Shown one piece after another: positions 6,154 through 22,844 of a DNA stretch of 64,000 bases. Position 1 is the first letter of the stretch; each line of letters starts with the position of its first letter. The notes beneath the pieces are model-generated. The model saw nothing but the letters and a program-made list of their open reading frames with translations. It was not told where the DNA came from and searched no databases. The translations under genes and the position numbers were made by a program. This DNA comes from Candidatus Eiseniibacteriota bacterium (GTDB lineage Bacteria > Eisenbacteria > RBG-16-71-46): positions 701,821 through 765,820 of the forward strand of contig OY970178.1 of NCBI GenBank assembly GCA_963707915.1. Reading direction: 5' to 3'.

Positions 6154-7485
6154 GTGACTTCATCCGCGACGACGTCCAACGAGTCCATCCCCAAGCGGGT
6201 CGTGCTGGTCGACTTCGACTGGCGCGACGCCGACCTGATGCCCGAGCTGCTGGCGCGGCCGGGGCTCTCGGTACGCCTGGTGGCGGGCCCGGCGGGGGAC
6301 GGGCCGGGGCTGAAGATGGCCGAGCTCTGCGAGCTGCCGCGCACCACGGACCTGGCGGACCTGACCCGCGAGATCTTCGATCTGGCCATCGTGAGCGAGC
6401 GGAGCCCGCGGCGCACGCAGGTCGAAGGCCTGCTGCTCGCGCTGGGCACCCCCTGCGTCTCGCCCGAGTCCCTGCTGCACGGGACCGACCTGGAGCACGC
6501 CCACACCCCCGGCGTCGAGGCGCCGCTCGCACTGCACGCGATCGCGCTGGAGAACGCCCTGGGCGGAGCGGAGTTCGATGCGCTGATCGAGCACGCGCTC
6601 CCGGACATCGGCGAGGGCGGTACGACCGCCCCGCGGGAGGTAGCGCCCATCGGACGCTCCGAGCTGCAGGTGCGAAGCCTCGCGGAGTTCCCCTCGATCG
6701 AGGACCGGCAGGGGCTCGAGCGGGCGCTCGCCGATCTCGCCAACGGCACCGGGGCGCGGTCGGCCGAGATGCGCGCGGGCCGCTCCGGAGCGGTCCAGTT
6801 GCTGGCGCGCGTCGGGGAAGAGGACACGCTGCTCGCCGGCCTGATCGACCTCGCCTTGAGCGAGAACACGCCCCAGGTGATCACGCGCCTGACGGGGCCG
6901 CAGGAGGGCAAGGCCTGGGGGGCGTGGCCGTTCCGCACCACGCGCAGCCACGGAGTGATCGCGGCCGCCGCCATCGACCCGGCCTCGGGCTGGACGACGT
7001 GGCAGCAGACCGTCGAGGACCTGCGCCAGGCCTGGGACCAGCGCGACCGCGAACAGGTGGTCCCGGCCTTCCCGCTCGTGCCGGAGGACCAGCACGGGTG
7101 GCTCGACCTCGAGGGCTTCCGCTCCGCGCTCTCGCTCGCGGTCGCGCGCAACCAGCGCGACGGGCTCGCCTTCGCCGCGCACCACTTCGAGTTCGCGGAC
7201 CACGTGGAGGCGCTGGCCTGGCTGTGCGAGCGGCTCCCGTCACAGCTGCGCGACACCGACCGGCTGTTCCGGCCCCGGCAGAACGTCGTCGTGATGCTCA
7301 CGGCCTGCTCGCTCGTGGCCTTCGGACCGGTGCGGCGGCGCATCGCGGCGCTCTGGGAGGCGGCATGGCGGGAGGGCGGTGGCTCCCTGCCGGCCCCCGT
7401 GCCGGCCGAGGACCGCGTCCAGGTCGCCACGCCCGCCGAGGCGGAGCGCTTCCTGGCCACCGCCAGCGGCTGGCTGGCTCCGTAG
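6154..7485 (+). CDS. Hypothetical protein
   Basis: ORF 5899..7485; preferred start GTG 6154 preceded by AGGAG (6143-6147) with 6-nt spacer; the 5899-6153 portion translates as low-complexity Pro/Ala/Arg text; no family recognised. Confidence 0.5.
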   Translation: MTSSATTSNESIPKRVVLVDFDWRDADLMPELLARPGLSVRLVAGPAGDGPGLKMAELCELPRTTDLADLTREIFDLAIVSERSPRRTQVEGLLLALGTPCVSPESLLHGTDLEHAHTPGVEAPLALHAIALENALGGAEFDALIEHALPDIGEGGTTAPREVAPIGRSELQVRSLAEFPSIEDRQGLERALADLANGTGARSAEMRAGRSGAVQLLARVGEEDTLLAGLIDLALSENTPQVITRLTGPQEGKAWGAWPFRTTRSHGVIAAAAIDPASGWTTWQQTVEDLRQAWDQRDREQVVPAFPLVPEDQHGWLDLEGFRSALSLAVARNQRDGLAFAAHHFEFADHVEALAWLCERLPSQLRDTDRLFRPRQNVVVMLTACSLVAFGPVRRRIAALWEAAWREGGGSLPAPVPAEDRVQVATPAEAERFLATASGWLAP

Positions 7486-7641
7486 CCTCGAAGGCCGTCC
7501 CCCGGCGCGGCGACCGGCGATCCGCCGCCCGCCAGCCCATCCTTCCATCCCGCAGGACTGCGACGGCGCAGTTATCCACAGCTCGTTCTTGACCGGGCTT
7601 CCGGCGGTCGGGTATTGCTCCGCCCCTCAAGCGGAGGCCCG

Positions 7642-9381
7642 ATGGAAGGCTCCATCCGGCGGCTGCCGCCCGAGACCGCCTCCCGCATCGCGGCGGGGGA
7701 GGTCATCGAGCGGCCGCTCTCGGCCCTGAAGGAGATCCTCGAGAACGCGCTCGATTCCGGGGCGCGCTCGGTCGAAGTGCGCGTGGAGCGGGCGCTCGAC
7801 CACCTCTTCGCGGTCGCCGATGACGGCTCCGGCATCCGCGCCGACGAGCTGGACCTGGCGCTGGAACGTCACGCGACGAGCAAGCTCGCGCGCCTCGAGG
7901 ACCTCGACCGCCTCGCCTCCCTCGGGTTTCGCGGCGAGGCCCTGCCGAGCGTCGCGGCGGTGAGCCGGCTGCGGCTCACCAGCCGCCCCGCCGCCTCGGC
8001 GTCCGCCGCCTTCGTCGCGCTCGAGGGGGGCGCGGTCACCGACCGCGGCAGCGCGGCGCGTGCGCCCGGGACCACGGTCGAGGTCGCGGAGTTGTTCTAC
8101 AACACGCCGGCGCGGCGCAAGTTCCTGACCTCGCCGACCAGCGAGTTGCGCGCGGCCCTGCGGCTGCTGGAGGCCTACGCGCTGGCCTATCCGCAGGTCG
8201 GCTTCCGGCTGGTGGTGGACTCCAAGGAGCGGCTGCAGTGGCCCGCCGTGCCGGGGACGGGCCTCGCGTCCCGGCGCGACCGCGCCTCCGCGCTCTGGGG
8301 GGCCCGCCACGCCACGCAGTTGCTCGAGGTGGAGGCCGAGCGCGAGGGCATGAGGATCGAGGCGCTGCTCGGGCTTCCCGAGCACGCGCGCGCCACGCGC
8401 GAGGGGCAGATCTACATCGTGAACGGGCGCTGGATCCAGAGCCCCATGCTGGGTGCGGCGCTGCGGCAGGCCTACGGCAACCTGCTCCCGCCGGGACGCT
8501 TCCCCGCGGCGACGCTGTGGCTCACGGTGCCCCCCGAGCGACTCGACGTCAACGTGCACCCGACCAAGCGCGAGGTGCGCTTCGCGGACGAGGACCGCGT
8601 CTTCTCACTGGTCACCTCGGCCTGCTCCCGGCCCCTGTCCCAGGTCGCGCCGCCCTTCGCGGTCGTGGCCGGCGGCACGCGGGAGACCGGTGCGTACCCG
8701 GCGTGGTCCGAGCGCGTGCGCGAAGGGCCGCCGGAACAGACCTACCTCGGCCTCGAGCTCCCGGGTGCACCCGCGACGGCCGCCCCGCCGGCCGCGCCCG
8801 CCGCCGGGGCCGAGCCCGTGCTCTGGCAGCTCCACCAGACCTACGTGCTGGCCCCGGTGCGGGGCGGCCTGGTGATCATCGACCAGCACGCCGCGCACGA
8901 GCGCATCCTCTACGAGGAGGCGCTGGCGCGGCTGCAGGGCGAGCACGGGGTCGCGCAGCAGCTGCTCTTTCCGACGCTGGTGGACCTCACCAACGACCAG
9001 TTCGAGCTGCTGCTCGAGCTGGGCCCGTACCTCAAGCAACTGGGCTGGGACCTCTCCCTGCTGGGCCCGCCCACCGTGGTCGTCCAGGGCGTGCCCTCCG
9101 GGCTGCGCCACGAGCGCCCGGGCCAGCTCCTCCAGGACGTCCTCGACGGCATGAACGAGAGCACCGGCCGTTCCCCGGACGAGGACCTCTCGCACCGGCT
9201 CGCCGCGTCCTGGGCCTGCCATGCCGCGACCCGCGCCGGCGACCCGCTCACGCAGGAAGAGATGCGCTCGCTGGTGGACCGGCTGTTCGCCACCTCGCGG
9301 CCCCACGGCGACCCGCACGGGCGCGTCACCTTCGTGCGGCTCGACCTCGACGAGCTGCACCGGCGCTTCGGCCGGGCGTAG
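7642..9381 (+). CDS. mutL: DNA mismatch repair protein MutL
   Basis: N-terminal GHKL ATPase motifs (IAAGEVIERPLSALKEILENALDSGA, DDGSGI, GFRGEAL); C-terminal dimerisation region; ATG 7642 with GGAGG 5 nt upstream. Confidence 0.9.
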   Translation: MEGSIRRLPPETASRIAAGEVIERPLSALKEILENALDSGARSVEVRVERALDHLFAVADDGSGIRADELDLALERHATSKLARLEDLDRLASLGFRGEALPSVAAVSRLRLTSRPAASASAAFVALEGGAVTDRGSAARAPGTTVEVAELFYNTPARRKFLTSPTSELRAALRLLEAYALAYPQVGFRLVVDSKERLQWPAVPGTGLASRRDRASALWGARHATQLLEVEAEREGMRIEALLGLPEHARATREGQIYIVNGRWIQSPMLGAALRQAYGNLLPPGRFPAATLWLTVPPERLDVNVHPTKREVRFADEDRVFSLVTSACSRPLSQVAPPFAVVAGGTRETGAYPAWSERVREGPPEQTYLGLELPGAPATAAPPAAPAAGAEPVLWQLHQTYVLAPVRGGLVIIDQHAAHERILYEEALARLQGEHGVAQQLLFPTLVDLTNDQFELLLELGPYLKQLGWDLSLLGPPTVVVQGVPSGLRHERPGQLLQDVLDGMNESTGRSPDEDLSHRLAASWACHAATRAGDPLTQEEMRSLVDRLFATSRPHGDPHGRVTFVRLDLDELHRRFGRA

Positions 9382-9385
9382 TCCC

Positions 9386-10327
9386 GTGGCCGCGCCCCGC
9401 GTCATCGCCGTCGTCGGCGCGACCGCCACCGGCAAGACCGACCTCGGCGAGGCGCTGGCCGATGCGATCGGCGGCGAGGTGGTGTGCGCCGACTCGCGCC
9501 AGGTCTTCCGCGAGCTCGAGATCGGCACCGGCAAGCCGTCGGCCGCCGAGCGCGGGACGCGGCCGCACCACCTGTTCGACGCGCTCGAGCTCGGGCAACG
9601 GCCGAGCGCCGGCTGGTACGCGAAGGCGGCCGGCGCGGTCTGCGGGGCGATCCACTCGCGCGGCCGCACTCCCGTGCTGGTGGGCGGCTCGGGGCTCTGG
9701 CTGCGCGCCGCCCAGCACGGCCTCTCGGGGGAGCCGCCGCACGACGCCGCGGTGCGGGCCCGCGTCCAGGCGGAGCTGGACGCGGCCGGCCCCGAAGCAC
9801 TGCACGAACGACTGGCCGCCGTCGACCCGGTCACCGCCGCGCGGCTCTCGCCCCGCGACCGCCAGCGCGTCACGCGCGCGCTCGAGGTCCACGAGGCCAG
9901 CGGCCGGCCGCTCTCGTGGTGGCACGAGCGCGAGGGCGAGCCCGCGGTGGTGGGGGAGTGGGCGGTGCTGGAACTGGCGCTGCCGTCACCGGAGCTGGAC
10001 GGGCGGATCGAGCGGCGCACGCGCTGGATGTTCGAGAACGGGCTGGTCGACGAGACGCGGGCGCTGGTCGGGGCGGGAAAGGCGGAGCCGCTGCGGGCGC
10101 TGCGCGCCGTGGGCTACGACGAGGCGCTCGACCTGATCGCGGGAGGAATCGGTCGCGCCGAGGCCGAGGCACGCACGAGCCTGCGCACCCGCCAGCTGGC
10201 CAAGCGCCAGCGGACCTGGTTCCGGCACCAGGGCGAGGCGATCCGGCTGGAGGCCGGCGGGCCCGCGGGTGGCCGGCTCCTCGAGGCCGCACTGCGGGCG
10301 CTGGGCCCCGGCCGGGCACGATCCTGA
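9386..10327 (+). CDS. miaA: tRNA dimethylallyltransferase MiaA
   Basis: P-loop AVVGATATGKTDL, VCADSRQVFRELEIGTGKP, SGLW motifs; GTG start 9386 just after mutL stop. Confidence 0.85.
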   Translation: MAAPRVIAVVGATATGKTDLGEALADAIGGEVVCADSRQVFRELEIGTGKPSAAERGTRPHHLFDALELGQRPSAGWYAKAAGAVCGAIHSRGRTPVLVGGSGLWLRAAQHGLSGEPPHDAAVRARVQAELDAAGPEALHERLAAVDPVTAARLSPRDRQRVTRALEVHEASGRPLSWWHEREGEPAVVGEWAVLELALPSPELDGRIERRTRWMFENGLVDETRALVGAGKAEPLRALRAVGYDEALDLIAGGIGRAEAEARTSLRTRQLAKRQRTWFRHQGEAIRLEAGGPAGGRLLEAALRALGPGRARS

Positions 10328-10341
10328 GCGCCCCAGCCCGG

Positions 10342-10370
10342 TTGACACCATCGCGTTCGGGCACTAGGTT
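10342..10370 (+). promoter_or_regulatory. Putative sigma70-type promoter for tRNA-Gly (TTGACA-N17-TAGGTT)
   Basis: Perfect -35 hexamer TTGACA at 10342-10347, 17-nt spacer, weak -10 TAGGTT at 10365-10370, about 30 nt upstream of mature tRNA 5' end. Confidence 0.25.
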
Positions 10371-10400
10371 CAGCCCCGGCTTGAAGCGGACCTCGTGTGG

Positions 10401-10476
10401 GCGGGCATAGCTCAGTTGGTAGAGCGCGAGCTTCCCAAGCTTGAGGTCGCGGGTTCGACCCCCGTTGCCCGCTCCA
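10401..10476 (+). tRNA. tRNA-Gly (anticodon CCC)
   Basis: 76-nt cloverleaf folded by hand: acceptor GCGGGCA/TGCCCGC, D-arm GCTC-AGTTGGTA-GAGC, anticodon loop TTCCCAA, T-arm GCGGG-TTCGACC-CCCGT, discriminator T, encoded CCA. Confidence 0.9.
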
Positions 10477-10581
10477 TATCATCATGGCCTGAGGCGCACC
10501 GGCGCGGGTGGAACATCCTGCCGGCGCGTCGAGCCTTCCGAGGAGGCTTCCCTGGCCGCACCCGCGACTCGACAGCCCATC

Positions 10582-11877
10582 GTGGCCATCATCGGCCGCC
10601 CGAACGTCGGCAAGTCGACGTTCTTCAACCGCGTGCTCGGCGAGCGTCGCGCGGTGGTGCACGACCGGCCCGGGATCACCCGCGACCGCAACACCGCGCA
10701 GGCCGATTGGGCCGGCTACACCTTCCTGCTGGTGGACACCGGCGGCTTCCTGCCCGGCGCTGCCGAGGGCCGCGACGCGCGGGTCCGCCGCCAGGCCGAG
10801 ATCGCCATCGAGCTGGCCGACGCGGTGATCTTCATGGTGGACGTCAAGACCGGCGTGACGGACCTGGACGTCGCCATCGCCCGCGATCTGCGCCGCCGCC
10901 AGGTGAAGAGCCTGCTCGTGGTCAACAAGGTGGACAAGCCGGGCGACCTCGGCACCCATGACTTCCACCGCCTCGGGCTGGGCGTGCCCCAGCCGGTCTC
11001 ATCGGAGAACGGCTTCGGTGTCGGCGACCTGCTGGACGAGGTGGTCGCGCTGCTGCCCGGGCGCTCCGAGGAACTGGCGCCCCCGAGCACGCGGGTCGCC
11101 ATCGTGGGACGGCCCAACGTCGGCAAGTCGTCGATCGTGAACATGCTGCTGCGCGAGGACCGTGTCCTGGTGGAGCCCCTGGCCGGCACCACGATGGACG
11201 CCATCGACACCGAGTGGAAGACCCCCGCCGGCACCTTCACCCTGATCGACACGGCCGGCATCCGCCGCGAGTCGCGCTACCAGGACGAGGCCGAGTTCTA
11301 TGCCGTGGTGAGGGCGCTGAACGCCCTGCAGCGCGCGGACGTCGCCTGCCTGGTCCTGGACGCGACGCAGGGGTTCCTCAAGCAGGAGGCCCGGCTCGCG
11401 CACAACGCCCTGGACGCCGGCTGCGCGCTGTTGCTGGTCTACAACAAGTGGGACCTGATCGAGGGCCGGCACGAGGCCTGGGAGCGCCTGACGCTCGAGC
11501 GGACCGACCGCTACCCGACGCTCAAGGACCTCCCCGCGGTCCCGGTGTCGGCCACCGAGAAGATCAACCTCGGCCGCCTTCCGAAGCTCATCCTGCAGCG
11601 CGTCGAGGAGCACTCGCGCAAGATCCCCACCCGCGCGCTGAACGACTGGCTGGAGCAGGTGCAGCGGCAGCGCGGCGTGCCGTCCACCGGGAGCGGACTC
11701 ATCCCCAAGCTGTACTACATCGCCCAGACCGGCTCCTCGCCGCCCGAGTTCACCCTGTTCGTGAACCACCCGCAGCGGCTCAACGACAACTACCGCCGCT
11801 TCCTCTGGCTGCGCTTCGCGGAGCACTTCGGCTTCCACGGCACGCCGCTGAAGATGCGCGTGCGCAAGAGCGAGTAG
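10582..11877 (+). CDS. der: Ribosome-associated GTPase Der (EngA), two GTPase domains
   Basis: Two G-domains (GRPNVGKSTFFN...DTGG and GRPNVGKSSIVN...DTAG) and KH-like C-terminus; no ATG between tRNA and first G1 motif; start placed at GTG 10582 but uncertain (alternative CTG about 10554 behind GAGGAGG). Confidence 0.8.
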   Translation: MAIIGRPNVGKSTFFNRVLGERRAVVHDRPGITRDRNTAQADWAGYTFLLVDTGGFLPGAAEGRDARVRRQAEIAIELADAVIFMVDVKTGVTDLDVAIARDLRRRQVKSLLVVNKVDKPGDLGTHDFHRLGLGVPQPVSSENGFGVGDLLDEVVALLPGRSEELAPPSTRVAIVGRPNVGKSSIVNMLLREDRVLVEPLAGTTMDAIDTEWKTPAGTFTLIDTAGIRRESRYQDEAEFYAVVRALNALQRADVACLVLDATQGFLKQEARLAHNALDAGCALLLVYNKWDLIEGRHEAWERLTLERTDRYPTLKDLPAVPVSATEKINLGRLPKLILQRVEEHSRKIPTRALNDWLEQVQRQRGVPSTGSGLIPKLYYIAQTGSSPPEFTLFVNHPQRLNDNYRRFLWLRFAEHFGFHGTPLKMRVRKSE

Positions 11878-11881
11878 CGCG

Positions 11882-12520
11882 GTGGCCGCGGCCCTGCTGC
11901 TGTGCGTCGCCATCGCCTACGGGAGCGGCTCGCTGCCCTGGGGACTGTGGATCGGCCGGCTGGCGCGCGGCGTGGACGTCCGCACGATCGGCTCCGGCAA
12001 CCTGGGGGCCACGAACGTCTACCGCTCCCTGGGCCCCGCGCTCGGCATCCTCACGCTCGTCCTGGACATCGCGAAGGGGGCATTGCCGGTGTGGCTGCTG
12101 CCGCACGCCGCCTTCGCCGCGGCGTTCCCGGGCGGTCCCGAGTGGTGCCGGCTGGCCGTGGGGGTCGCCGCGGTGGCCGGGCACGTCTGGACCTGCCTGG
12201 CCGGCTTCAAGGGCGGCAAGGGCGTGGCCACCACCACGGGCGTGCTGCTCGCGCTGGCCCCCGTCGCCTTCGGCGTCTTCGTGGGGGTCTTCCTGCTCAC
12301 CCTGGCGGCCACGCGCTTCGTCTCGCTGGGCTCGACGCTGGGCGCGCTCGCCTTCGCCGTGGCGCTCGGCTTCCTGGCGCCGGGCGGCCTGCGCAGCCCC
12401 ACGTTCCTGCTGGGCCTGTTGCTCGCGGTGCTCGTGGTGTTCCGGCACCGCGACAACTTTCGCCGGCTCGCGCGCGGCGAGGAGCGACGCTTCTCGTTCC
12501 GGGGAGGGCGGACGTCATGA
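11882..12520 (+). CDS. plsY: Glycerol-3-phosphate acyltransferase PlsY
   Basis: GTG start; PlsY motifs (GSGNLGATN, KGGKGVAT); multi-pass membrane protein; conserved der-plsY-gpsA order. Confidence 0.85.
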   Translation: MAAALLLCVAIAYGSGSLPWGLWIGRLARGVDVRTIGSGNLGATNVYRSLGPALGILTLVLDIAKGALPVWLLPHAAFAAAFPGGPEWCRLAVGVAAVAGHVWTCLAGFKGGKGVATTTGVLLALAPVAFGVFVGVFLLTLAATRFVSLGSTLGALAFAVALGFLAPGGLRSPTFLLGLLLAVLVVFRHRDNFRRLARGEERRFSFRGGRTS

Positions 12521-13506
12521 GCACCGTGGCGGTGCTGGGGGCCGGCTCCTGGGGAACGACGCTGGCGATCCACCTGTGCCGGGCCGGGTCCGACGTCCGG
12601 CTCTGGTGCAACGTGCAGGCGGACCTCGAGGCCATGCTCCGCGACCGGGAGAACCGGAAGTTTTTGGCTGGCATCAGGCTCCCCGATGGGGTTAAGGTTC
12701 TACCGGAGCTGGAGGCCGCGCTCGAGTCGGCGGATTTCACGTTTTACGTGGTGCCCTCGCAGGCGGTCCGCGAGGTGGCGCGCAAGGTCGCTCTCGTCGG
12801 GCACGGCGGCGTGCCGGTGTGCGCGGCCAAGGGCCTCGAGCTCGGCAGCCTCAAGCGCATGAGCGAGGTGCTCTCGGAGTGCCTCGGCGATCCCGGCCCG
12901 GTGGTCCTCACGGGCCCGAGCCACGCCGAGGAGGTCAGTCGCGGCATCCCGACCACGGTGGTGGCCGCCGCGGCGGACGAATCGCGGGGCCGGGCGGTGC
13001 AGTTGCTGTGCTCGACACCGGCGTTCCGCGTCTACACGAACACCGACGTCGTCGGCTGCGAGTACGCCGCGGCGTTGAAGAACGTCATGGCGATCGCCGC
13101 CGGGGTGTGCGACGGCATCGGCTGGGGGGACAACACCAAGGGCGCGCTGCTCACGCGGGGGCTGGCCGAGATCTCGCGACTGGGCGTCGCACTCGGCGGG
13201 CGCCGCGAGACCTTCTTCGGGCTCGCGGGCCTGGGGGACCTGATCACGACGGCCATGAGCCGCCATAGCCGGAACCGGCACGTGGGGGAGGAGATCGGGC
13301 GCGGCCGCCCGCTCGCCGACGTGCTGGGGGACATGGTGATGGTCGCGGAAGGCGTGACCACCGCCCGCGCGGCCCGCGACCTGGGCCGGGCACACGAGGT
13401 CGAGTTGCCGATCACGGAACAGGTGTGCGCGATGCTGTTCGAGGGCCGCAGCCCCCGCGAGGCGGTGCAGAGCCTCATGACGCGAGACCTGAAGAGCGAG
13501 CAGTGA
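12517..13506 (+). CDS. gpsA: NAD(P)H-dependent glycerol-3-phosphate dehydrogenase GpsA
   Basis: Rossmann motif VLGAGSWGT; GpsA core (KGLE, GPSHAEEV, YTNTDVVGCEYAAALKNVMAIAAG); ATG overlaps plsY stop (ATGA). Confidence 0.9.
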   Translation: MSTVAVLGAGSWGTTLAIHLCRAGSDVRLWCNVQADLEAMLRDRENRKFLAGIRLPDGVKVLPELEAALESADFTFYVVPSQAVREVARKVALVGHGGVPVCAAKGLELGSLKRMSEVLSECLGDPGPVVLTGPSHAEEVSRGIPTTVVAAAADESRGRAVQLLCSTPAFRVYTNTDVVGCEYAAALKNVMAIAAGVCDGIGWGDNTKGALLTRGLAEISRLGVALGGRRETFFGLAGLGDLITTAMSRHSRNRHVGEEIGRGRPLADVLGDMVMVAEGVTTARAARDLGRAHEVELPITEQVCAMLFEGRSPREAVQSLMTRDLKSEQ

Positions 13507-13958
13507 AACCCGCATCGCCCGCGCCACGCCGCGGCGGGACCGGCACGGGCCGGCAGGGGAGGATCGAATTGTCGCCGCTCAAGACGGAACCCGAGTCCGA
13601 GTCCAGGCTCTACCGGCCCATCAGCGATGTCGCCGAGGTCGTCGGCGTGAAGCCGCACGTGCTGCGTTACTGGGAGACGCAGTTCAGCATGCTGCGCCCC
13701 AAGAAGAACCGGGCCGGGAACCGCATGTACCGGCCCGACGAGGTGAAGCTGCTGTTCCGGATCAAGGAGCTGCTCTATGACCGGCGCTTCACCATCGCCG
13801 GTGCGAAGCGGCACCTGCTGGACCTGCGCAAGGAGCCCGCGCCGCAGCAGGTGGAACTGGTCTTCGGCGAGGCCGAGAAGAAGCTCGCGATCCACGAGGT
13901 GAAGACCGAGCTCAAGCAACTCCTCAGCCGCCTGCGCAAGCCGGGGCTGCACGCCTGA
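13503..13958 (+). CDS. MerR-family transcriptional regulator
   Basis: HTH resembling MerR family ([22 protein letters not shown]...NRMYRPDEV) followed by coiled-coil; start uncertain (GTG 13503 overlapping gpsA stop, or TTG near 13570). Confidence 0.65.
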
Positions 13959-13988
13959 TCGGCGCCCCGGCCCCGCCCGGACGCCCAC

Positions 13989-14017
13989 TTGCGCGATGGG
14001 CCGCGGTCGCATAGATT
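13989..14017 (+). promoter_or_regulatory. Putative promoter for tRNA-Pro(GGG) (TTGCGC-N17-TAGATT)
   Basis: -35-like TTGCGC 13989-13994, 17-nt spacer, -10-like TAGATT 14012-14017, 19 nt upstream of tRNA 5' end. Confidence 0.25.
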
Positions 14018-14036
14018 CACGTCGCAACGCATCGGT

Positions 14037-14113
14037 CGGGGCGTAGCGCAGCCCGGTAGCGCACCTGCATGGGGGGCAGGGGGTCGAAGGTTCAAATCCT
14101 TTCGCCCCGACCA
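14037..14113 (+). tRNA. tRNA-Pro (anticodon GGG)
   Basis: 77-nt cloverleaf: acceptor CGGGGCG/CGCCCCG, D-arm GCGC-AGCCCGGTA-GCGC, anticodon stem CCTGC/GCAGG with loop ATGGGGG (U33, G37), T-arm GAAGG-TTCAAAT-CCTTT, encoded CCA. Confidence 0.9.
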
Positions 14114-14200
14114 CTTTCACTGCGGCGTTCCCCACGCCGCCCGGCGCACCCCGCGCCTCCCGCCTCGCCCGCCCCGCGCCTTGACCGCGCTCCGTTCGTC

Positions 14201-14228
14201 GTGTTACGAAGTGCGCGAAAGGTCACAC
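14201..14228 (+). promoter_or_regulatory. Candidate NikR operator: imperfect palindrome GTGTTAC-N14-GTCACAC ending immediately before the nikR ATG
   Basis: Half-sites at 14201-14207 and 14222-14228; right half differs at one position from the exact reverse complement GTAACAC; resembles the NikR box consensus GTGTTAC-N13/14-GTAACAC as I recall it. Confidence 0.4.
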
Positions 14229-14229
14229 C

Positions 14230-14646
14230 ATGAACAGACCCCCGCTCACCCGGTTCACCATCTCGATGCCACGCGTCCTGGCCGGGCAACTCGACTCCAT
14301 GGCCAGGGCCAAGGGCTACGCCAACCGCTCCCAGGCGGTCGCGGACATGGTCCGCGCCCACCTGCTGGAACATCGCGCGCAGGCCGGGACCCACGAGATC
14401 GCCGGCACCATCACGCTGGTCTACGACCACCACCGGCGGAACATCCAGGCGCTCCTGACGAACCTCCAGCACGACCACGGCGACCTCATCGTGGCCACGC
14501 TGCACGTCCACCTGAGCCACCACGACTGCATGGAGGTGCTCGCGGTGCGCGGGCCGGCGGATGCCGTGAAGCGCCTGGCCGACCGCCTCACCGCCGCGAA
14601 GGGTGTCACGCACGGCCGGCTGACCGTGACGACGACCGGCGAGTAG
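14230..14646 (+). CDS. nikR: Nickel-responsive regulator NikR (ribbon-helix-helix plus C-terminal metal-binding domain)
   Basis: N-terminal RHH (RFTISMPRVLAGQLDSMARAKGYANRSQAVADMVR) and C-terminal His/Cys-rich domain (HVHLSHHDCMEVLAVRG). Confidence 0.85.
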   Translation: MNRPPLTRFTISMPRVLAGQLDSMARAKGYANRSQAVADMVRAHLLEHRAQAGTHEIAGTITLVYDHHRRNIQALLTNLQHDHGDLIVATLHVHLSHHDCMEVLAVRGPADAVKRLADRLTAAKGVTHGRLTVTTTGE

Positions 14647-14697
14647 CCCCGCGATCGCGCGGCGGCTGCCACCCGGCCCCGAGAAGGAGGGACCCCA

Positions 14698-15690
14698 GTG
14701 CACATCCCCGACGGCTTCCTCGACGCGAAGACGGCGGTGACGACCGGCGTGCTGGCGACCGCCGGCCTGGGGCTGGCGCTGGCAGCCGTGCGTCGCACCG
14801 TCCCCCCGCGGCGGATTCCGTTGATCGGCCTGGCGGCGGCCTTCGTCTTCGCCGCGCAGATGCTCAACTTCCCGGTCGCGGGCGGGACCTCGGGGCACCT
14901 CATCGGAGCCGTGCTCGCGGCGGTGCTGCTCGGTCCGGCCGCCGCGGTGCTGGTCATGAGCGCCGTGCTCATCCTGCAGTGCCTGATGTTCGCCGACGGG
15001 GGCGTGACGGCGCTCGGCGCGAACCTGTTCAACATGGCGCTGGTCGCGCCGACCGTGGGCTACGTCGTCTACCGCGTCCTGCGACGCGTCGCGGGGGAGG
15101 GGTTGCGCGGGCGGCTCTTCGCCACGGCCTTCGCCGCCTGGTCCTCGACCGTCGCCGCCGCGCTCTCCTGCGCCGGGCAGCTCGCGCTGTCGGGCACCGT
15201 CCCGCTGCGGGCCGCGCTGCCCGCGATGGGCGGCGTCCACATGTTCATCGGCCTCGGCGAGGCCGTCATCACCACCCTCGTGGTCGCGGCGGTCGCCCGG
15301 GCGCGCCCCGAGCTGCTGCTCGAACCGGCCGGACCGGGGCCACGGCCGCGCCTGGGCGAGCTCGCGGCGCGGGGTCTGCTGGTCGCGCTGGCGCTGGCGC
15401 TCTTCGTGGCGCCATTCGCCTCGCGCTGGCCCGACGGCCTCGAGCGGGTCGCCGCGACCCTGGGCTTCGAGCACCGGGCGGCGCCCCCCGTCCTCGCTTC
15501 CCCGCTCCGCGACTACCGCTTCCCCGGGATCGGCTCCGCCGCGCTCGCCACGGGCATCGCCGGCGGCGCCGGCACCCTGGTCGCGTTCGTCCTGGCCTGG
15601 TTGCTCGCCACCCTGCTGACGCCTTCCCGCGGCGCCGGCGCCCCGCGGGGCGGGAAGGGGCCCCATGGCGATGCGCCGCGCCCTGCTTGA
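14698..15690 (+). CDS. cbiM: ECF transporter substrate-specific component CbiM/NikM with C-terminal PDGLE-motif domain
   Basis: Canonical CbiM N-terminus MHIPDGFLD (GTG start translated as M); multi-TM; C-terminal extension containing WPDGLERVA (PDGLE-domain-like); RBS aaggaggga. Confidence 0.85.
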   Translation: MHIPDGFLDAKTAVTTGVLATAGLGLALAAVRRTVPPRRIPLIGLAAAFVFAAQMLNFPVAGGTSGHLIGAVLAAVLLGPAAAVLVMSAVLILQCLMFADGGVTALGANLFNMALVAPTVGYVVYRVLRRVAGEGLRGRLFATAFAAWSSTVAAALSCAGQLALSGTVPLRAALPAMGGVHMFIGLGEAVITTLVVAAVARARPELLLEPAGPGPRPRLGELAARGLLVALALALFVAPFASRWPDGLERVAATLGFEHRAAPPVLASPLRDYRFPGIGSAALATGIAGGAGTLVAFVLAWLLATLLTPSRGAGAPRGGKGPHGDAPRPA

Positions 15691-16285
15691 GCCGTACCAG
15701 CACCGCCCGAGCGCGATCCACCGGCTCCCGGCGGGGGTCAAGGCCGGCGCGGCGCTCGCGTTCGTGCTCGCCGTCGTTCTGCTGCCCCGCGCGTCGTGGG
15801 CCGCCTACGGGGCCGGGGCGGGGCTGCTGCTGCTGGTCGCCGGGCTCTCGCGCATCGCGCCGGCGGCGCTCGCCCGCCGGCTCCTGCTGGTCGAGCCCTT
15901 CGCCCTCGGCGTCGCGCTGCTCACGCTCCTGCAGCCGGACGGGGTCCGGGTCTTCGCCGTCACGCTGACCCGGAGCACGCTGTGCCTGTCCTGCATGGTG
16001 CTGCTCTCCGCCACGACGCGCTTCTCCGCCGTCCTCGGCGTGCTCCGGCGCGTCCGCGTCCCGTCCCTGCTGGTCACCACGCTGGCGCTCATGCACCGCT
16101 ACCTCTTCGTGCTCGCCGACGAGGGCGGCCGCATGGCGCGCGCCCGTCGCAGCCGCACCTTCACCGCGGACCGCGCGTCGGCCTGGCGCTCGTCCGCCTC
16201 GGTCATCGCGCACCTCTTCGTGCGCAGCAGCGAGCGCGCCGAGCGCATCTACGCGGCGATGTGTGCGCGGGGCTGGAGGACATGA
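15665..16285 (+). CDS. cbiQ: ECF transporter transmembrane (T) component CbiQ/NikQ
   Basis: 206-aa hydrophobic protein with CbiQ-like Arg-rich C-terminal region; overlaps cbiM by 26 nt and cbiO start. Confidence 0.75.
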   Translation: MAMRRALLEPYQHRPSAIHRLPAGVKAGAALAFVLAVVLLPRASWAAYGAGAGLLLLVAGLSRIAPAALARRLLLVEPFALGVALLTLLQPDGVRVFAVTLTRSTLCLSCMVLLSATTRFSAVLGVLRRVRVPSLLVTTLALMHRYLFVLADEGGRMARARRSRTFTADRASAWRSSASVIAHLFVRSSERAERIYAAMCARGWRT

Positions 16286-17030
16286 ACGCGCTGGAGGTCC
16301 GGGGCCTCGGCTACCGCTACCCCGACGGCACGACCGCCCTTCACGACGTCCGATTCGACGTGGCCGAAGGCGAACGCGTGGCGCTCATCGGTCCCAACGG
16401 CGCCGGCAAGTCCACGCTGCTGCTCCACCTCAACGGGCTGCTGCCCGAGCGTGCGGCCGCGGTCCCCGCCGTCCACGTCTTCGGCAACCCGGTCGCCGAG
16501 CCCCACCTGGCGGCCATCCGGGCCCGCGTCGGACTGCTGTTCCAGGACCCGGACGACCAGATCTTCTGCCCGACCGTGTGGGAGGACGTCGCGTTCGGCC
16601 CGCAGCAGCTCGGCCTGCGCGGGGCCGACCTCGCCGCCCGCGTGAACGCGGGCCCTCGACCAGGTCGGCCTCGCGGGCTTCGACGAGCGCCTGCCCCATC
16701 ACCTCAGCCGGGGCGAGAAGCGCCGTGTCTGCCTGGCGGGCCTGCTCGCCTGCGAGGCCCGCCTGCTGGCGCTGGACGAGCCGACCAGCGACCTCGACCC
16801 GCGCGGCCGCCGGGAGCTGAAGGGCCTGCTCGCGAACCTCCCGGTGGCCCAGGTGATCGCGACCCACGACCTCGAGCTGGTGGTCGAGCTCTGCCCGCGC
16901 GTGATCGTGCTCGACCGGGGGAGCGTGGTGGCACAGGGGCCGACGCGCGGAGCTGCTCGCGGACGAGGACCTGATGCTGGCGCACGGCCTCGAGCGACCG
17001 CACGTCCTCCGCCACCGGCATCCGCACTGA
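16282..17030 (+). pseudogene. cbiO: ECF transporter ATPase CbiO/NikO, disrupted by two +1 frameshifts (pseudogene or sequence error)
   Basis: Walker A GPNGAGKST and Q-loop LLFQDPDDQ in frame 1 (16282 to about 16647); signature LSRGEKRR, Walker B LLALDEPTSDLD, H-loop IATHDLE in frame 2 (about 16652-16948); C-terminus ELLADEDLMLAHGLERPH in frame 0 to stop 17028-17030. Confidence 0.8.
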
Positions 17031-17092
17031 GCCCGCGGCGCCCCGGGCGCGGGCTTGCAAGTTGCCGGTCCGCGCCGCAAAGTGACTCCGAC

Positions 17093-17914
17093 ATGCTCAC
17101 CTGGATGCTGTATCTCGCCGCCGACCGGCTGGTCCGCGCGCTGCCCGCCGCGGCGGCCGACCGCCTGGCCGTGGGGATCGCGCGGCTGGTCTTCGCGCTG
17201 CGGGTGCCGGCCCGTGCCCGCCTCGAGGAGAACCTGGCGCGGCTGCTCGCGGGCGAGCCCGGGGCGCCGTTCGACGCCGTGGCGCGCGAGGCGTTCGACA
17301 ACTTCGCGAGAAACTTCGTCGACTTCCTGAGGCTCGGCCACGCTCCGCCCGGCGCCCTGGCCGGGGCGGTCGAGGTGCACGGCGCGGAACACCTCGAGGC
17401 CGCGCGCAACTCGGGGCGCGGCGTGATCCTGCTGTCGGCGCACCTCGGCAACTGGGAGCTGGGCGCCGCCTGGCTCGCCGCCGGCGGCACGCCGGTCCAC
17501 CTGGTCGCGCGTCCGCACGGGAGTCCGCGGGTCGAGCGCTTCTACGCGCGCCGCCGCCGCGCCTGGGGCGTGCGCCTGATGCCCGAGCGGCCGCTCTGGC
17601 GCCCGGCGGCCGCCGCCCTTCGCCGCCGCGAGTGGGTCGCCCTGATGGCGGATCGCGGGGCGCCCGGACCGCAAACGGGCCGGCGCGCCTCGGTCTGTGC
17701 CTGGGCCGCGGTGCTGGCCCGGCGCACCGGCGCCCTGGTGCTCCCGGCGGTGATCGTGCGCCGGCCCGGCGGACGCTACGCGCTCCACTTCGAGCATCCG
17801 CTCGAGCCCGCCGCGGTGCGCGCCGACGGCTTCGTCGAGAGCCTGCGCCGTCACCTGCGACAGCATCCGCGGCAGTGGTCCGCGTTCGAGCCCCTGCCGG
17901 AGGGCCTGGCCTGA
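17093..17914 (+). CDS. Lysophospholipid/lipid A acyltransferase family protein (HtrB/LpxL-like)
   Basis: LPLAT-type motifs (GVILLSAHLGNWELG, ADRGAPGP, LPAVIVRRPGGRY); ATG 17093. Confidence 0.7.
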   Translation: MLTWMLYLAADRLVRALPAAAADRLAVGIARLVFALRVPARARLEENLARLLAGEPGAPFDAVAREAFDNFARNFVDFLRLGHAPPGALAGAVEVHGAEHLEAARNSGRGVILLSAHLGNWELGAAWLAAGGTPVHLVARPHGSPRVERFYARRRRAWGVRLMPERPLWRPAAAALRRREWVALMADRGAPGPQTGRRASVCAWAAVLARRTGALVLPAVIVRRPGGRYALHFEHPLEPAAVRADGFVESLRRHLRQHPRQWSAFEPLPEGLA

Positions 17915-18660
17915 TGCGTCTCGCCGCACTCGTTCCCGCGTACCAGGCGGCCGCGAAGCTCGGCGACGTGCTGCTGCGGCTCGCCGCGCTCGAGCAGCCT
18001 CCGGCCGTGCTGGTGGTGGATGACGGCTCGCCCGACGACACCGCCGAGGTCGCGCGACGGCACGGCGCCCGCGTGCACTCCTTCGCGACGAACCGCGGCA
18101 AGGGACACGCCCTACTGGCGGGCTTCGCCGCGCTCCGCGACGAGTTCGACGCGGTGGTGACGCTGGACGCCGACGGCCAGCACCCGCCCGAGTGCCTGCC
18201 CGCCCTGGTGCGCGCGGCGGAGCGCGGCGCGGACCTGGTGCTGGGGACGCGGGCGCGCACCTCCGACATGCCGCTGGCGCGCCGCTTCGCGAACGCGTTC
18301 TCCTCGCGGTGGGCGACCTGGCTCGCCGGGCAGCGCGTCTCCGACAGCCAGTGCGGCTACCGCCTCCACTCGAGCCGCCTGCTCGAACGCACACCGCTCA
18401 CGCCCGGTCGCTACGAGGTCGAGACCGAGATGGTGGTGCGCGCTGCGCGCCTCGGCTTCCGCATCGCCGAGGTCGAGATCCCGACGATCTACGGCGAGGA
18501 GCGCAGCCAGGTCCGCGCCTTCCAGGACGTGCCACGCATCATCGGCACGCTGCTGCGCCTCACCGGCGAGGGCGTGATGCCGCCCGCCGCGATGCGCGCG
18601 GCGCACCGGGCCGGGATCGCGGGGCCACGCTCCGCCGGAGCGGGAGGGACGGTCCGGTGA
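17914..18660 (+). CDS. Family 2 glycosyltransferase (polyprenol-phosphate/dolichol-phosphate glycosyltransferase-like)
   Basis: GT2 motifs (VVDDGSPDDT, TLDADGQHPP, QCGYRL); ATG overlaps upstream stop. Confidence 0.8.
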   Translation: MRLAALVPAYQAAAKLGDVLLRLAALEQPPAVLVVDDGSPDDTAEVARRHGARVHSFATNRGKGHALLAGFAALRDEFDAVVTLDADGQHPPECLPALVRAAERGADLVLGTRARTSDMPLARRFANAFSSRWATWLAGQRVSDSQCGYRLHSSRLLERTPLTPGRYEVETEMVVRAARLGFRIAEVEIPTIYGEERSQVRAFQDVPRIIGTLLRLTGEGVMPPAAMRAAHRAGIAGPRSAGAGGTVR

Positions 18661-19403
18661 ACGTGCTGCTCACCAACGACGACGGCATCCAGGCGCCCGC
18701 GCTGCGTCACCTCAAGGACGCGCTGACCCCGCTGGGACGGGTGATCATCGTCGCGCCGGACCGCGACCAGAGCGCCACCTCGCACGCCCTCACGCTCCAG
18801 CGCCCCTTCCGCATCCAGCAGCACGAACCCGACGTCTACAGCGTCGACGGCACGCCGACCGACTGCGTGATCACGTCGTTCTACGGTCTGCTGGATCGCG
18901 CCCCCGACCTGGTCATCTCCGGCATCAACCTGGGACCCAACATGGGGGAGGACGTGTTCTACTCGGGCACGGTGGCGGCGGCCATCGAGGGTTCCCTGCA
19001 GGGCACCCCGGCGATCGCGGCCTCCTTCGCCACGCGGACGGTGCCCGACATGGCTGAGCCCGCGCGGTTCATCGCCCGCCTGGTCGGGCGGCTGCTCGAC
19101 GAGGGCCTGCCGCGCCGCCACCTGCTGAACGTCAACTTCCCCGGCGGCCCGTGGTCCGAGTCCCGCGGGGTCAAGGTCACCCGCCTCGGCAGCCGCGTCT
19201 ACCACGACACGCTGGTGAAGAAGGTGGACCCGCGCGGCCGCGACTACTATTGGATCGGCGGGGAAGACCCCGAGTGGGAGTCCATCGAGGGCACCGACTT
19301 CCATGCCGTGCACGACGGCTGGATCTCGGTTACCCCGTTGCGTCTGGACTTCACCGCCGACACGGCGCTCGCGGAGCTGGAGGCATGGCGCCTGGAGAAG
19401 TAG
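18657..19403 (+). CDS. surE: 5'/3'-nucleotidase SurE
   Basis: N-terminal LLTNDDGIQAPAL, SGINLGPNMGEDVFYSGTVAAA; GTG start overlapping GT2 stop. Confidence 0.9.
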   Translation: MNVLLTNDDGIQAPALRHLKDALTPLGRVIIVAPDRDQSATSHALTLQRPFRIQQHEPDVYSVDGTPTDCVITSFYGLLDRAPDLVISGINLGPNMGEDVFYSGTVAAAIEGSLQGTPAIAASFATRTVPDMAEPARFIARLVGRLLDEGLPRRHLLNVNFPGGPWSESRGVKVTRLGSRVYHDTLVKKVDPRGRDYYWIGGEDPEWESIEGTDFHAVHDGWISVTPLRLDFTADTALAELEAWRLEK

Positions 19404-20095
19404 CGCCGGATCCGGGGCAGGCGGAGCCCGACGCCTTCGCGTCCGAGCGGGCTCGCATGGTGGACGAGCAGCTCCGCGCGCGCGGGGTGCGCGATCCGCG
19501 GATCCTGGCCGCCATGCGCGAGCTGCCCCGGCACCTGTTCCTGCCGCGCGAGCGGTGGAGCGCGGCGTACGGCGACTGGGCGCTGCCGACCGCCTGGGGG
19601 CAGACGATCTCCCAGCCCTACATCGTGGCACGCATGCTCGAGCTGGCCGAGCTCGAGCCTGGCCACCGCGTCCTGGAGATCGGCACCGGGAGCGGCTACC
19701 AGGCCGCACTGCTGGCCCGGCTGGTCCGCGAGGTCTGCAGCGTCGAGCGGATCGGCGGACTGCTGGCGGAGGCGCGGGAACGCCTGACCGCCCTGGGCGC
19801 GGCGGACGTTCGCCTGCTCGAAGGCGACGGCACCCTCGGCTGGCGGGAGTTCGCGCCCTATGATAGGGTCGTTGTCGCTGCGGCGGCTCCCCGGGTTCCG
19901 GAGGCCCTCAAGGAACAACTCGGCGCGCGGGGCGTGCTCGTGATTCCCGTGGGCGGGGCCGCGATCCAGCGCCTGGAGGTCTGGCGCCGGTCGCCGGTCG
20001 GCGAATGGCAGTGCAGCCGACACGGGGAGTGCCGTTTCGTCCCGCTGCTCGGACTTGACGCGTGGCGGGAGGAACGGCACCCATCTCGGGATTGA
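19385..20095 (+). CDS. pcm: Protein-L-isoaspartate O-methyltransferase
   Basis: PIMT motifs (QTISQPYIVARMLE, VLEIGTGSGYQAALLA); conserved surE-pcm adjacency; start ATG 19385 (alternative 19457). Confidence 0.85.
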   Translation: MAPGEVAPDPGQAEPDAFASERARMVDEQLRARGVRDPRILAAMRELPRHLFLPRERWSAAYGDWALPTAWGQTISQPYIVARMLELAELEPGHRVLEIGTGSGYQAALLARLVREVCSVERIGGLLAEARERLTALGAADVRLLEGDGTLGWREFAPYDRVVVAAAAPRVPEALKEQLGARGVLVIPVGGAAIQRLEVWRRSPVGEWQCSRHGECRFVPLLGLDAWREERHPSRD

Positions 20096-20103
20096 TCATC
20101 GGT

Positions 20104-20180
<77 letters not shown>

Positions 20181-20271
20181 CTTCTTCCCTCGTCGTCTCC
20201 CCGCCTCCGCAGGACCGCCGGCGCGCCGCCCGGCCGGCGGGGACCCGCTGCGCACCCCTGCGGCCTGAGCC

Positions 20272-20550
20272 ATGGACCGCGTCGTCCTCGTGATCACGGG
20301 AAGCGTGCAGGGAGTGGGCTTCCGCTGGTACGTTCTCCAGGCGGCGAGGGCCCTCGGGCTCACCGGCGAGGTCCGCAACCGGTCCGACGGCGCCGTGGTG
20401 GTCGAGGCCGAGGGCGCGCGCGACGCGCTCGAACGACTCATGGAGATCGCGCGAGAGGGCCCCGCGATGGCGATAGTCGGGCAGGTGGAGGCGAGCTGGA
20501 GCGAGGGGCCCGCGCGATTCCGCGAATTCCGCATCGGCCGCTCGAGCTGA
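20272..20550 (+). CDS. acyP: Acylphosphatase
   Basis: 92 aa; acylphosphatase signatures (VxGxVQGVGFR, GEVRNRSDGAVVVEAEG). Confidence 0.8.
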   Translation: MDRVVLVITGSVQGVGFRWYVLQAARALGLTGEVRNRSDGAVVVEAEGARDALERLMEIAREGPAMAIVGQVEASWSEGPARFREFRIGRSS

Positions 20551-20558
20551 GGGGGCCC

Positions 20559-21632
20559 ATGGTCACCGGCCTGGTTCGGTTCCGCGATCGGCTCGCCGCC
20601 GCCCTCGCGGCGGCGCAGCCCCGCGGCGCGGTCCTCCAGGACGAGTACGAGGGCCTGCTCGTCGATCCGGACTTCGACGACGTCGAGTTCGAGCGCTTCC
20701 GTGCCGACGCGCTCCAGGCCGGGGTGGAACTGCCGGAGCCGGAGATCGAGCCCGGGGCGGGGACGCGGGAGCCCGCCGTCGGGGCGGACCGGGCCGAGCG
20801 CGACCTCCTGGACATCTACCTCGCCGAGATCGGGCGCGTGCCGCTGCTCGAACATCCCGAGTTGATGGAACTGGCGGGCCGCGCCCGCGCCGGCGACGCC
20901 GAGGCCCGCAAGCGGATCATCGTCGCGAACCTGCGGCTCGTGGTGTACCTCGCGCGCGCCTACCGCAACCGCGGCCTGCCGATGCTCGACCTCATCGAGG
21001 AGGGCAACCTCGGGCTCATCCAGGCGGCGGACCGCTTCGACCCGGGACGCGGACTGCGGTTCTCGACGTACGCCGCGATCTGGATCCGCCAGGCCATCCT
21101 GCGGAGCGTGGCCGAGCAATCGCGCACGGTCCGCATCCCGGTGCAGATGTTCCAGCAGGTCAACCGCTTCGTGCGGGTCGAGCGCGCGTTGCGCGCGCGC
21201 CTCGGGCGCGACCCGACCGCCGAGGAGGTCGCGCACACGATGGAGATCTCGACCCCGCGCGCGGCGCGGCTCGGGGGCCTGCTCGCGAGCCTGCGGTCGC
21301 TCGACGAAGGCACCAGCGTGCAGGCCTACGAGCAGCTCTCGACCGAGGACCTGGCCGAATCGCCCCCCTCGGTCGAACGCCTCATCGAGCTGCAACTCGA
21401 GCACGAGCAGGTGGGCCGCCTGCTGCGCTCGCTGAGCCAGCGCGAGGAGCAGATCGTGCGCATCCGCTACGGCTTCTACGACGGGGTGGCGCGAACGCTG
21501 GCGCAGACCGGCGGCCTGTTCGGGATCTCGCGCGAACGCGTGCGGCAGATCGAGGCCCGCGCCCTGCAGAAGCTGCGCCGGGCGATCGAGTTGCAGGAGA
21601 CGGCGCGCGCCGGCGACGGCAGCGTCCAGTGA
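20559..21632 (+). CDS. Sigma-70 family RNA polymerase sigma factor (group 2-like, RpoS/RpoD-type)
   Basis: Region 1.2-2.4 (DLLDIYLAEIGRVPLL, NLRLVVYLARAYRNRGLPMLDLIEEGNLGLIQAADRFDPGRGLRFSTYAAIWIRQAI) and region 4 (TLAQTGGLFGISRERVRQIEARALQKLR); closely parallels E. coli RpoS core as I recall it. Confidence 0.85.
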   Translation: MVTGLVRFRDRLAAALAAAQPRGAVLQDEYEGLLVDPDFDDVEFERFRADALQAGVELPEPEIEPGAGTREPAVGADRAERDLLDIYLAEIGRVPLLEHPELMELAGRARAGDAEARKRIIVANLRLVVYLARAYRNRGLPMLDLIEEGNLGLIQAADRFDPGRGLRFSTYAAIWIRQAILRSVAEQSRTVRIPVQMFQQVNRFVRVERALRARLGRDPTAEEVAHTMEISTPRAARLGGLLASLRSLDEGTSVQAYEQLSTEDLAESPPSVERLIELQLEHEQVGRLLRSLSQREEQIVRIRYGFYDGVARTLAQTGGLFGISRERVRQIEARALQKLRRAIELQETARAGDGSVQ

Positions 21633-21687
21633 GGGCCGCGGGGAGCTCGCGACGCCGCCCGCCAACCGGAACCATGGAGAGCCGCGC

Positions 21688-22209
21688 ATGGACGACCTGA
21701 AGAAGTACATCCGCGACGTCCCCGACTTCCCCCGCAAGGGGATCGTCTTCAAGGACATCACGCCGCTGCTGCACGATGCGGCGGCCCTCGGCCGTGCCGT
21801 CGAGCGGATGAGCCAGCGCGCCGCGCGGCCGGCAGGCGTCGTGGCCATCGAGTCGCGCGGCTTCGTGTTCGGCACCGCGCTCGCGCTGCACTGGCGGGTG
21901 CCGCTGGTGCTGGCGCGCAAGTTCGGCAAGCTGCCCGGCCGGACCGTCCGGCAGGTCTACTCGCTCGAGTACGGCGAGGACACGCTCGAGATCCACGCGG
22001 ACGCACTCGGCCCCGGGCAGCAGGTCGTGGTGGTGGACGACCTGCTGGCGACCGGCGGCACCGCCCTTGCCACGGTCCGCCTCGTCGAGCAACTCCAGGC
22101 CCGGGTGCTGGCGACGCTGTTCCTCATCGAGCTGGCCGGGCTCGGCGGCCGTGAGCGCCTTGCCGGATACCCGGTGGAGTCGCTGCTGCGCTACGAGGTG
22201 ACGGGGTAG
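21688..22209 (+). CDS. apt: Adenine phosphoribosyltransferase
   Basis: 173 aa; PRTase motif VVVVDDLLATGGT and Apt N-terminus (IRDVPDFPRKGIVFKDITPLL). Confidence 0.9.
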   Translation: MDDLKKYIRDVPDFPRKGIVFKDITPLLHDAAALGRAVERMSQRAARPAGVVAIESRGFVFGTALALHWRVPLVLARKFGKLPGRTVRQVYSLEYGEDTLEIHADALGPGQQVVVVDDLLATGGTALATVRLVEQLQARVLATLFLIELAGLGGRERLAGYPVESLLRYEVTG

Positions 22210-22308
22210 GGGCGGCTCGACGTCCGCAAAGAGAGGGGCGCCGTGCCGGCCCATGTCGCAGGTGCCGGACGGCGCCCCTCCCGTATGGCGTGCTGGTCCC
22301 GGGGCCTG

Positions 22309-22509
22309 CTAGACCTTGCGGACGTTCGCGGCCTGAAGTCCCTTGGGGCCCTGGTTCACGTCGAACTCCACGGCATCGCCTTCGGCGAGCGTCTTGAATC
22401 CTTCGCCAGAGATCGCCGAGAAGTGGACGAACACGTCCTCGCCACCCTCCTGAGAGATGAATCCGAACCCCTTCGCTTCGTTGAACCACTTCACGGTGCC
22501 ACGAGCCAC
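22309..22509 (-). CDS. Cold-shock protein (CspA family)
   Basis: 66 aa; RNP1/RNP2 motifs ([23 protein letters not shown]); GTG start with AGGAG 6 nt upstream on minus strand. Confidence 0.85.
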
Positions 22510-22754
22510 TTGGAACTCCTTGATGCCGGGTCCGGGGACCCTCTCGTGCCGCCTGGACGCGGCGGCTGCGCCCGGCCACTCTGACCGGCTTCGGTCTGCC
22601 CGCGATGACGGAACCAGCGGCCGGGGCCGGGGCGGACCCCGACGCACGGACCGGAGGTTCGACCCCCCGCAGGTGACCAAGGCGGACGCAAGTATCGGCA
22701 GGGCCCGCTGGAGTGTCAAGCTCCCGGTGGGGCCTGCGGCGCTCCATCCCCCGG

Positions 22755-22784
22755 TTCGCACGGACCCGGAGCGAGAGGTAGAAT
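22755..22784 (+). promoter_or_regulatory. Putative promoter upstream of GH57-like gene (TTCGCA-N18-TAGAAT)
   Basis: -10-like TAGAAT 22779-22784 and -35-like TTCGCA 22755-22760; by-eye only. Confidence 0.2.
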
Positions 22785-22844
22785 CATCGCCCGCGCGCGT
22801 GGAGCCGTCACGCACTCGCAGGCACCATCGACCAGGAGTCCCCC

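Follow-up and report, generated by a model that had tools for sequence, protein, structure and literature searches.

The nik locus and the reading frames of cbiO

We examined a 64,000-nt stretch of DNA (the window; G+C content, 72%) that contains a nik operon on its plus strand, where the acyltransferase and class-III aminotransferase genes described below also lie. The first gene is nikR (14230 to 14646), which encodes a nickel-responsive regulator (NCBIfam NF003381, 159.6 bits against a cutoff of 105; Pfam NikR_C and RHH_1). It is followed by a gene for a 330-aa fusion of CbiM/NikM with a CbiN-like PDGLE domain (14698 to 15690; Pfam CbiM positions 1 to 205 of 205, E = 8e-61; PDGLE, E = 3e-13), whose product begins with MHIPDG, and by cbiQ/nikQ, encoding a T component of 206 aa (15665 to 16285; TIGR02454, 123.8 bits against a cutoff of 111.8, covering positions 4 to 200 of 200). 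All three genes are intact and covered by family models, in agreement with the first-pass annotation, which had described the operon as otherwise undamaged. The TGA stop of cbiQ overlaps the ATG of cbiO (ATGA). Downstream of cbiO are a separate, intact gene for a lipid A-type acyltransferase of 273 aa (17093 to 17914; Pfam Lip_A_acyltrans, E = 1e-33) and a gene for a GT2 glycosyltransferase. The end of cbiM-PDGLE overlaps cbiQ by 26 nt, an arrangement that gives false frameshift flags in simple censuses (loci L002 and L141). The region also holds tRNA genes for Gly(CCC) at 10401 to 10476, Pro(GGG) at 14037 to 14113, and Pro(CGG) at 20104 to 20180; tRNA Pro(GGG) adjoins nikR on its upstream side, and in the relatives each Pro gene also matches the other.

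The cbiO/nikO gene (16282 to 17030) occupies three successive reading frames in the deposited sequence, as seen in a three-frame translation of positions 16282 to 17040. The frame of 16282 encodes the N-terminal third of an ABC ATPase, with the Walker A motif GPNGAGKST and the Q-loop LLFQDPDDQ (segment 1, codons 1 to 122, 16282 to 16647). The frame of 16283 then supplies the signature LSRGE, the Walker B motif LLALDEPT, and the H-loop ATHD (segment 2, codons 123 to 221, 16649 to 16945), and the frame of 16284 supplies the final 27 residues, AELLADEDLMLAHGLERPHVLRHRHPH*, with the stop codon at 17028 to 17030 (segment 3, codons 222 to 248 plus stop, 16947 to 17030). A frame plot agrees with these translations: the third-position G+C signal, which is very sharp in this genome, changes phase at approximately 16650 and 16949. 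The first-pass annotation had reported two +1 shifts in cbiO with the ATPase motifs distributed over the frames in this order, and translation, frame plot, and alignment all bear it out.

Two loci with synteny to window positions 6355 to 22734, both at 85% nucleotide identity, allowed us to place the extra bases: L002, from a short-read assembly, and L009, from a Nanopore metagenome-assembled genome (MAG) of the Microflora Danica project. A three-way alignment shows that cbiO carries two 1-nt insertions specific to the window. The first lies in the context GTGAAC[G]CGGGCC (16647 to 16652); an equivalent placement is one G of the GGG run, and the best placement is G16648 (AAC[G]CGG), which yields ..RVNRALDQ.. 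in the repaired translation and restores the Arg of the orthologue consensus (RVxRAL). The second lies in the context CCGACG[C]GCGGAG (16946 to 16949), best placed at C16946 (ACG[C]GCG, giving ..GPTAELL..), and it is unambiguous, given that the window reads CCGACGCGCGGAG where both L002 and L009 read CCGACG-GCGGAA; the inserted C is not part of a homopolymer. The junctions had initially been remarked on for their G/C-rich contexts. The remark holds only in part: the first site may involve the GGG run but need not, and the second is not a homopolymer. Homopolymer slippage was rejected as an explanation, being compatible with just one of the placements open to the first site.

Removing one base at each junction produces a cbiO open reading frame (ORF) of 248 codons plus stop, with the junction peptides ..ARVNRALDQVGL.. 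and ..AQGPTAELLADE... This length equals that of >100 orthologues, as expected from the earlier remark that the combined pieces are as long as an intact CbiO. The repaired protein aligns with positions 1 to 242 of the 277 in the NCBIfam CbiO model PRK13652 (E = 4e-65), and it scores 99.3 bits against a cutoff of 25 with Pfam ABC_tran, identifying an ABC nucleotide-binding domain. Upon realignment all the ABC motifs are present, and each of GPNGAGKST, FQDPDDQ, LSRGE, LLALDEPT, and ATHD falls in invariant alignment columns.

In its motifs and full-length model alignment, the repaired protein resembles the CbiO/NikO (EcfA-like) ATPase of the group-I ECF systems CbiMNQO and NikMNQO, and the gene order nikR, cbiM-PDGLE, cbiQ, cbiO extends the likeness, with CbiM-PDGLE and CbiQ encoded immediately upstream and NikR further upstream. 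Unlike known CbiO proteins, however, the gene as deposited is split over three frames instead of forming a single uninterrupted ORF, its signature is LSRGE rather than LSGGQ, and its NCBIfam scores are below the curated equivalog cutoffs used for naming (219.8 versus 476 for PRK13652; 189.1 versus 211.8 for TIGR01166, cbiO). The names given to orthologues also vary, with some called cobalt/nickel transport ATP-binding protein and others EcfA2 (JGI). Judged by its genes and their order, the locus encodes a group-I ECF transporter of the Nik(MN)QO type, associated with NikR. Nickel as its substrate is putative, following from the neighboring NikR and from general knowledge of such systems.

Orthologues and selective constraint

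The nearest genomes to the window are uncultured Candidatus Eisenbacteria MAGs. In all close orthologues, cbiO is read in a single frame over residues 1 to 248, with 83 to 91% identity. The single frame was seen in 80 loci from genomes, 80 from metagenomes, and 120 proteins of 248 to 259 aa (nearly all 248 to 255 aa), and none of these approximately 280 orthologous loci or proteins has a shift at the corresponding positions. An intact cbiO from the same species was not found in the GTDB species representatives, the JGI metagenomes, or a set of 5.8 billion proteins, where the best match had 91% identity. A Logan contig from run ERR12037368 encodes an identical CbiQ and the first 42 codons of cbiO, ending 125 nt into the gene. 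Within the 16 kb of synteny, the other 1-nt differences specific to the window (7630, 14155, 21668, and 22643) are all intergenic.

The frameshifted ATPase resembles a bacterial pseudogene insofar as the frame of a recognizable gene is broken. It differs from one in several respects: dN/dS is not elevated, conserved residues are kept, there are no deletions, and the operon partners are undecayed. The repaired CbiO retains all 130+ invariant columns of the orthologue alignment. Leave-one-out counting gives it a single, conservative private change (Ile to Val) at otherwise invariant columns, which is typical for intact orthologues. Relative to L002, dN/dS is 0.18 for cbiO, below four of the five neighbors compared (nikR, 0.12; cbiMN, 0.23; cbiQ, 0.28; acyltransferase, 0.21; GT2, 0.26). 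Apart from the two insertions, cbiO is thus under the same purifying selection as its neighbors, with neither a raised dN/dS nor a loss of conserved residues. A long-dead gene with two independent indels should carry substitutions at constrained sites, and cbiO does not. The first-pass annotation had implied a frameshifted or pseudogenized ATPase, or a frameshifted product, and this part of it is not supported by the comparison, given the lack of relaxed constraint and the single-frame orthologues.

The unusual signature LSRGE (16702 to 16716), which replaces the canonical LSGGQ, was considered as a sign of decay. This was rejected, since all 16 aligned sequences of the orthologue group have LSRGE. 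They also share the surrounding block, HHLSRGEKRR.CLAG.LAC, with little or no variation.

Frame changes across the window and in Nanopore-only loci

To survey the whole window, we trained a codon-usage HMM on its long ORFs and searched all 64 kb for changes of frame on the same strand without a stop. Such switches occur in only two genes, twice in cbiO and three times in a class-III aminotransferase gene (38062 to 39381), and all five are +1. The aminotransferase gene is read in frames 0, 1, 2, and 0, owing to single-base insertions at approximately 38212 (AGC[G]CAG), 38864 (GTG[C]ACG), and 39174 (AAG[C]GGC). Repair of these yields a protein of 438 aa that passes NCBIfam PRK06062 (485.5 bits against a cutoff of 472) and shares 85% identity across its full length with homologues of 439 aa, which JGI names taurine--2-oxoglutarate transaminase. 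Like CbiO, the repaired aminotransferase shows no decay: approximately 200 invariant columns are kept, including the catalytic-lysine motif TMAKGLTSSY, and there is one private change. A second conserved gene in the window therefore has the same type of lesion. In total, the window has five insertions and no deletions; four or five of the five lie outside homopolymer runs, and by inspection the sites share no sequence or methylation-like motif beyond generic GC-rich triplets. The lesions are confined to 2 of 52 genes, which has a probability of ~3.5e-4 under uniform placement.

Three further oddities flagged by the HMM, at 19401 to 20093 (pcm), 56105 to 56720 (a lipoprotein gene), and 21630 to 21688 (upstream of apt), were rejected as frameshifts because they proved intact or intergenic on translation. 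Two stretches of the window have no coding signal. The first, downstream of apt (22204 to 22820, 617 nt), aligns to L002 and L009 until approximately 22730, and its sole Rfam match is the cspA thermoregulator at 23.5 bits, far below the cutoff of 78. The second (61784 to 62884, ~1.1 kb) has a lower G+C content (0.67 to 0.68), lacks coding signal in all frames, and gave no Rfam match with E values as high as 0.1.

Because productive reading of these genes as deposited would require +1 shifts, they invite comparison with the programmed frameshifting of prfB (RF2). They differ from prfB in having no CUU-UGA-type slippery/stop site and no conservation of the shift in orthologues, and no Shine-Dalgarno-like stimulator was seen when we read the sites by eye. 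The corresponding proposal, that two programmed +1 ribosomal frameshifts or some other bypass operate in cbiO and three in the aminotransferase gene, would account for the uniform direction of the shifts and for the perfect conservation of the flanking coding sequence. We nonetheless regard it as highly improbable. In-frame stops and obvious hungry codons are absent from all the sites (the cbiO contexts are AAC GCG GGC and ACG CGC GGA), and no site would permit P-site re-pairing in the +1 frame (AAC->ACG, ACG->CGC, AGC->GCG, GUG->UGC, AAG->AGC). The five sites have no common motif and no A/T runs that would favor transcriptional slippage, and the approximately 280 orthologous loci and proteins are unshifted at these positions. 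Lowest of all the readings we rate the full form of this proposal, in which the extra bases are real and at least two conserved genes, nikO and the aminotransferase gene, are expressed via multiple +1 recoding events at nonslippery, nonhomopolymer sites; it has almost no claim on belief, and if true, such multisite recoding would represent a mode of decoding not known from bacteria.

Consensus error offers a closer parallel. It is well documented that the consensus sequences of Nanopore assemblies contain frameshift errors (Sereika et al. 2022, PMC9262707), and the proovframe preprint (10.1101/2021.08.23.457338) also deals with indels of this kind in Nanopore-only assemblies of bacteria and metagenomes. 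For the Microflora Danica MAGs, Nanopore reads alone were assembled with Flye and given one round of Medaka, with no short-read polishing (PMC12313526). One of these, L009, has ~10 single-base insertions of its own inside genes within the region syntenic with the window, clustered and outside homopolymers (for example, CT[C]GCAG, CCT[G]CAAG, and TCG[C]GTC); they fall in zones at approximately 2580 to 2690, 5941, and 15090 to 15540 of that locus. At each of these positions, the reading frame is unbroken in both the window and the short-read L002, whose sequences agree.

We extended the comparison with a second census, in which a self-trained HMM was applied to 24 G+C-rich loci, six from Microflora Danica and eighteen others. 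Among the six Microflora Danica loci, 26 switches were flagged (14 in L037, six in L058, and four in L009), and 24 of the 26 were in the direction of one extra base, whereas the eighteen other loci had zero to two flagged switches each, in mixed directions. Aligned to a short-read relative, L037 has 10 single-base insertions and one deletion in 8 kb, at the positions flagged by the HMM (insertions at 2236 to 6053, 9170, and 9984). The signature is present in the Nanopore MAG loci L009, L037, and L058 and is not seen in L002, L052, or the JGI contigs. In L009 and L037, the insertions are clustered as they are in the window, and most are outside homopolymers. Overall, the pattern in the Microflora Danica loci looks like a systematic error signature of such assemblies.

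These observations also bear on the idea that the lesions are genuine. Very recent pseudogenization would mean two real insertions in nikO and three in the aminotransferase gene, leaving the importer without its own ATPase. It would agree with the presence of the lesions in the deposited assembly, with their clustering in two genes (a pattern predicted for genes whose function has already been lost), and with the lack of an intact same-species copy among the collections searched. However, five independent indels without one damaging substitution are very unlikely in neutral decay, and bacterial pseudogenes are known to be biased to deletions, the opposite of five insertions. In addition, the identical lesion pattern appears at other genes of Nanopore-only MAG loci, and nikR, nikMN, and nikQ upstream are fully intact and still coupled to nikO. 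Given that two multiply hit genes combine insertion-only bias with no decay, we consider real pseudogenization unlikely. The notion of a real frameshift, implicit in the first-pass annotation, likewise finds no frameshift-promoting signals at the sites and meets the same lesion three times in a second gene of the window and again in the Nanopore-only loci. A biological double frameshift in cbiO is not supported.

Source assembly, probable origin of the extra bases, and gene calls

The proteins of the window are on record in NCBI and ENA on one contig of 3,623,634 bp, including the exact CbiQ, NikR, and 273-aa acyltransferase. The aminotransferase appears there as a called gene whose frameshifted product of 320 aa reads through the first two insertion sites. 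Because this frameshifted product is on record and the protein collection has no CbiO that is intact or near-identical, the frameshifts belong to the deposited assembly. The single 3.6-Mb contig, together with nearest relatives that are all uncultured MAGs, suggests a long-read metagenome assembly; we infer that it was made from long reads only, probably Nanopore reads.

For the two extra bases in cbiO, we think that insertion errors in the consensus of this long-read, probably Nanopore-only, MAG are the likely origin. The lesions are like Nanopore consensus errors in that single-base indels break conserved genes, are absent from short-read relatives, and affect several genes per assembly. They are unlike the classic Nanopore errors, which are homopolymer indels, in being almost exclusively insertions, mostly nonhomopolymer, and clustered. 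Clustering of this degree (P ~3.5e-4) is not predicted by simple random error, so a local cause is needed, such as strain heterogeneity or a drop in coverage; local strain heterogeneity may be the cause here. Under such a mechanism, the errors would be introduced during assembly or polishing where the reads of coexisting strains disagree, with both alleles of a G/C third-position polymorphism possibly written consecutively into the consensus. At several sites, the inserted base and the third-position base before it do resemble two G/C alleles (GT[G/C], AC[G/C]). Disagreement among strains would explain why there are insertions only, why they lie outside homopolymers, and why they form local clusters.

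Strain heterogeneity could instead be more than a source of error, if intact strains and a minority that is truly frameshifted were combined in the consensus. The clustering of the lesions suggests local heterogeneity, and microdiversity is documented in soil and sediment MAGs of this kind (PMC12313526). Such a mixture is indistinguishable from artifact at the level of the assembly. The minority strains would also have to carry several independent insertions in each gene, and we judge this reading very unlikely.

If the extra bases are consensus errors, the gene of the organism would be a normal, single-frame nikO/cbiO of 248 codons, translationally coupled to nikQ, and its product would power a NikR-regulated, Nik(MN)QO-type ECF importer of nickel or cobalt. 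Most likely, the nickel/cobalt importer of this organism is an ordinary Nik(MN)QO system controlled by NikR. The biological significance of the broken frames is probably nil, and their value is as a warning about data quality: the assembly has clustered single-base insertions, mostly nonhomopolymer, that break conserved genes. Read literally, these breaks would raise pseudogene counts artificially or point to a loss of nickel uptake. The insertion-only signature of Nanopore-only MAG loci is relevant when such catalogues are mined.

The breaks also mislead gene callers, here producing a spurious antisense ORF over cbiO and a chimeric aminotransferase of 320 aa. Because the second frame of cbiO stays open through 17914, mechanical calling gives an ORF at 16844 to 17914 that runs on into the acyltransferase gene. 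The first-pass annotation had pointed to this fusion; the ORF exists, and the source gene set still calls the acyltransferase separately (17093 to 17914). We compared 19 candidate calls for pieces of cbiO and overlapping ORFs with the record, and only that separate acyltransferase and the antisense ORF are on it. The latter, of 85 aa, lies on the minus strand over the 5' part of cbiO (16249 to 16506) and is apparently a miscall caused by the frameshifts.
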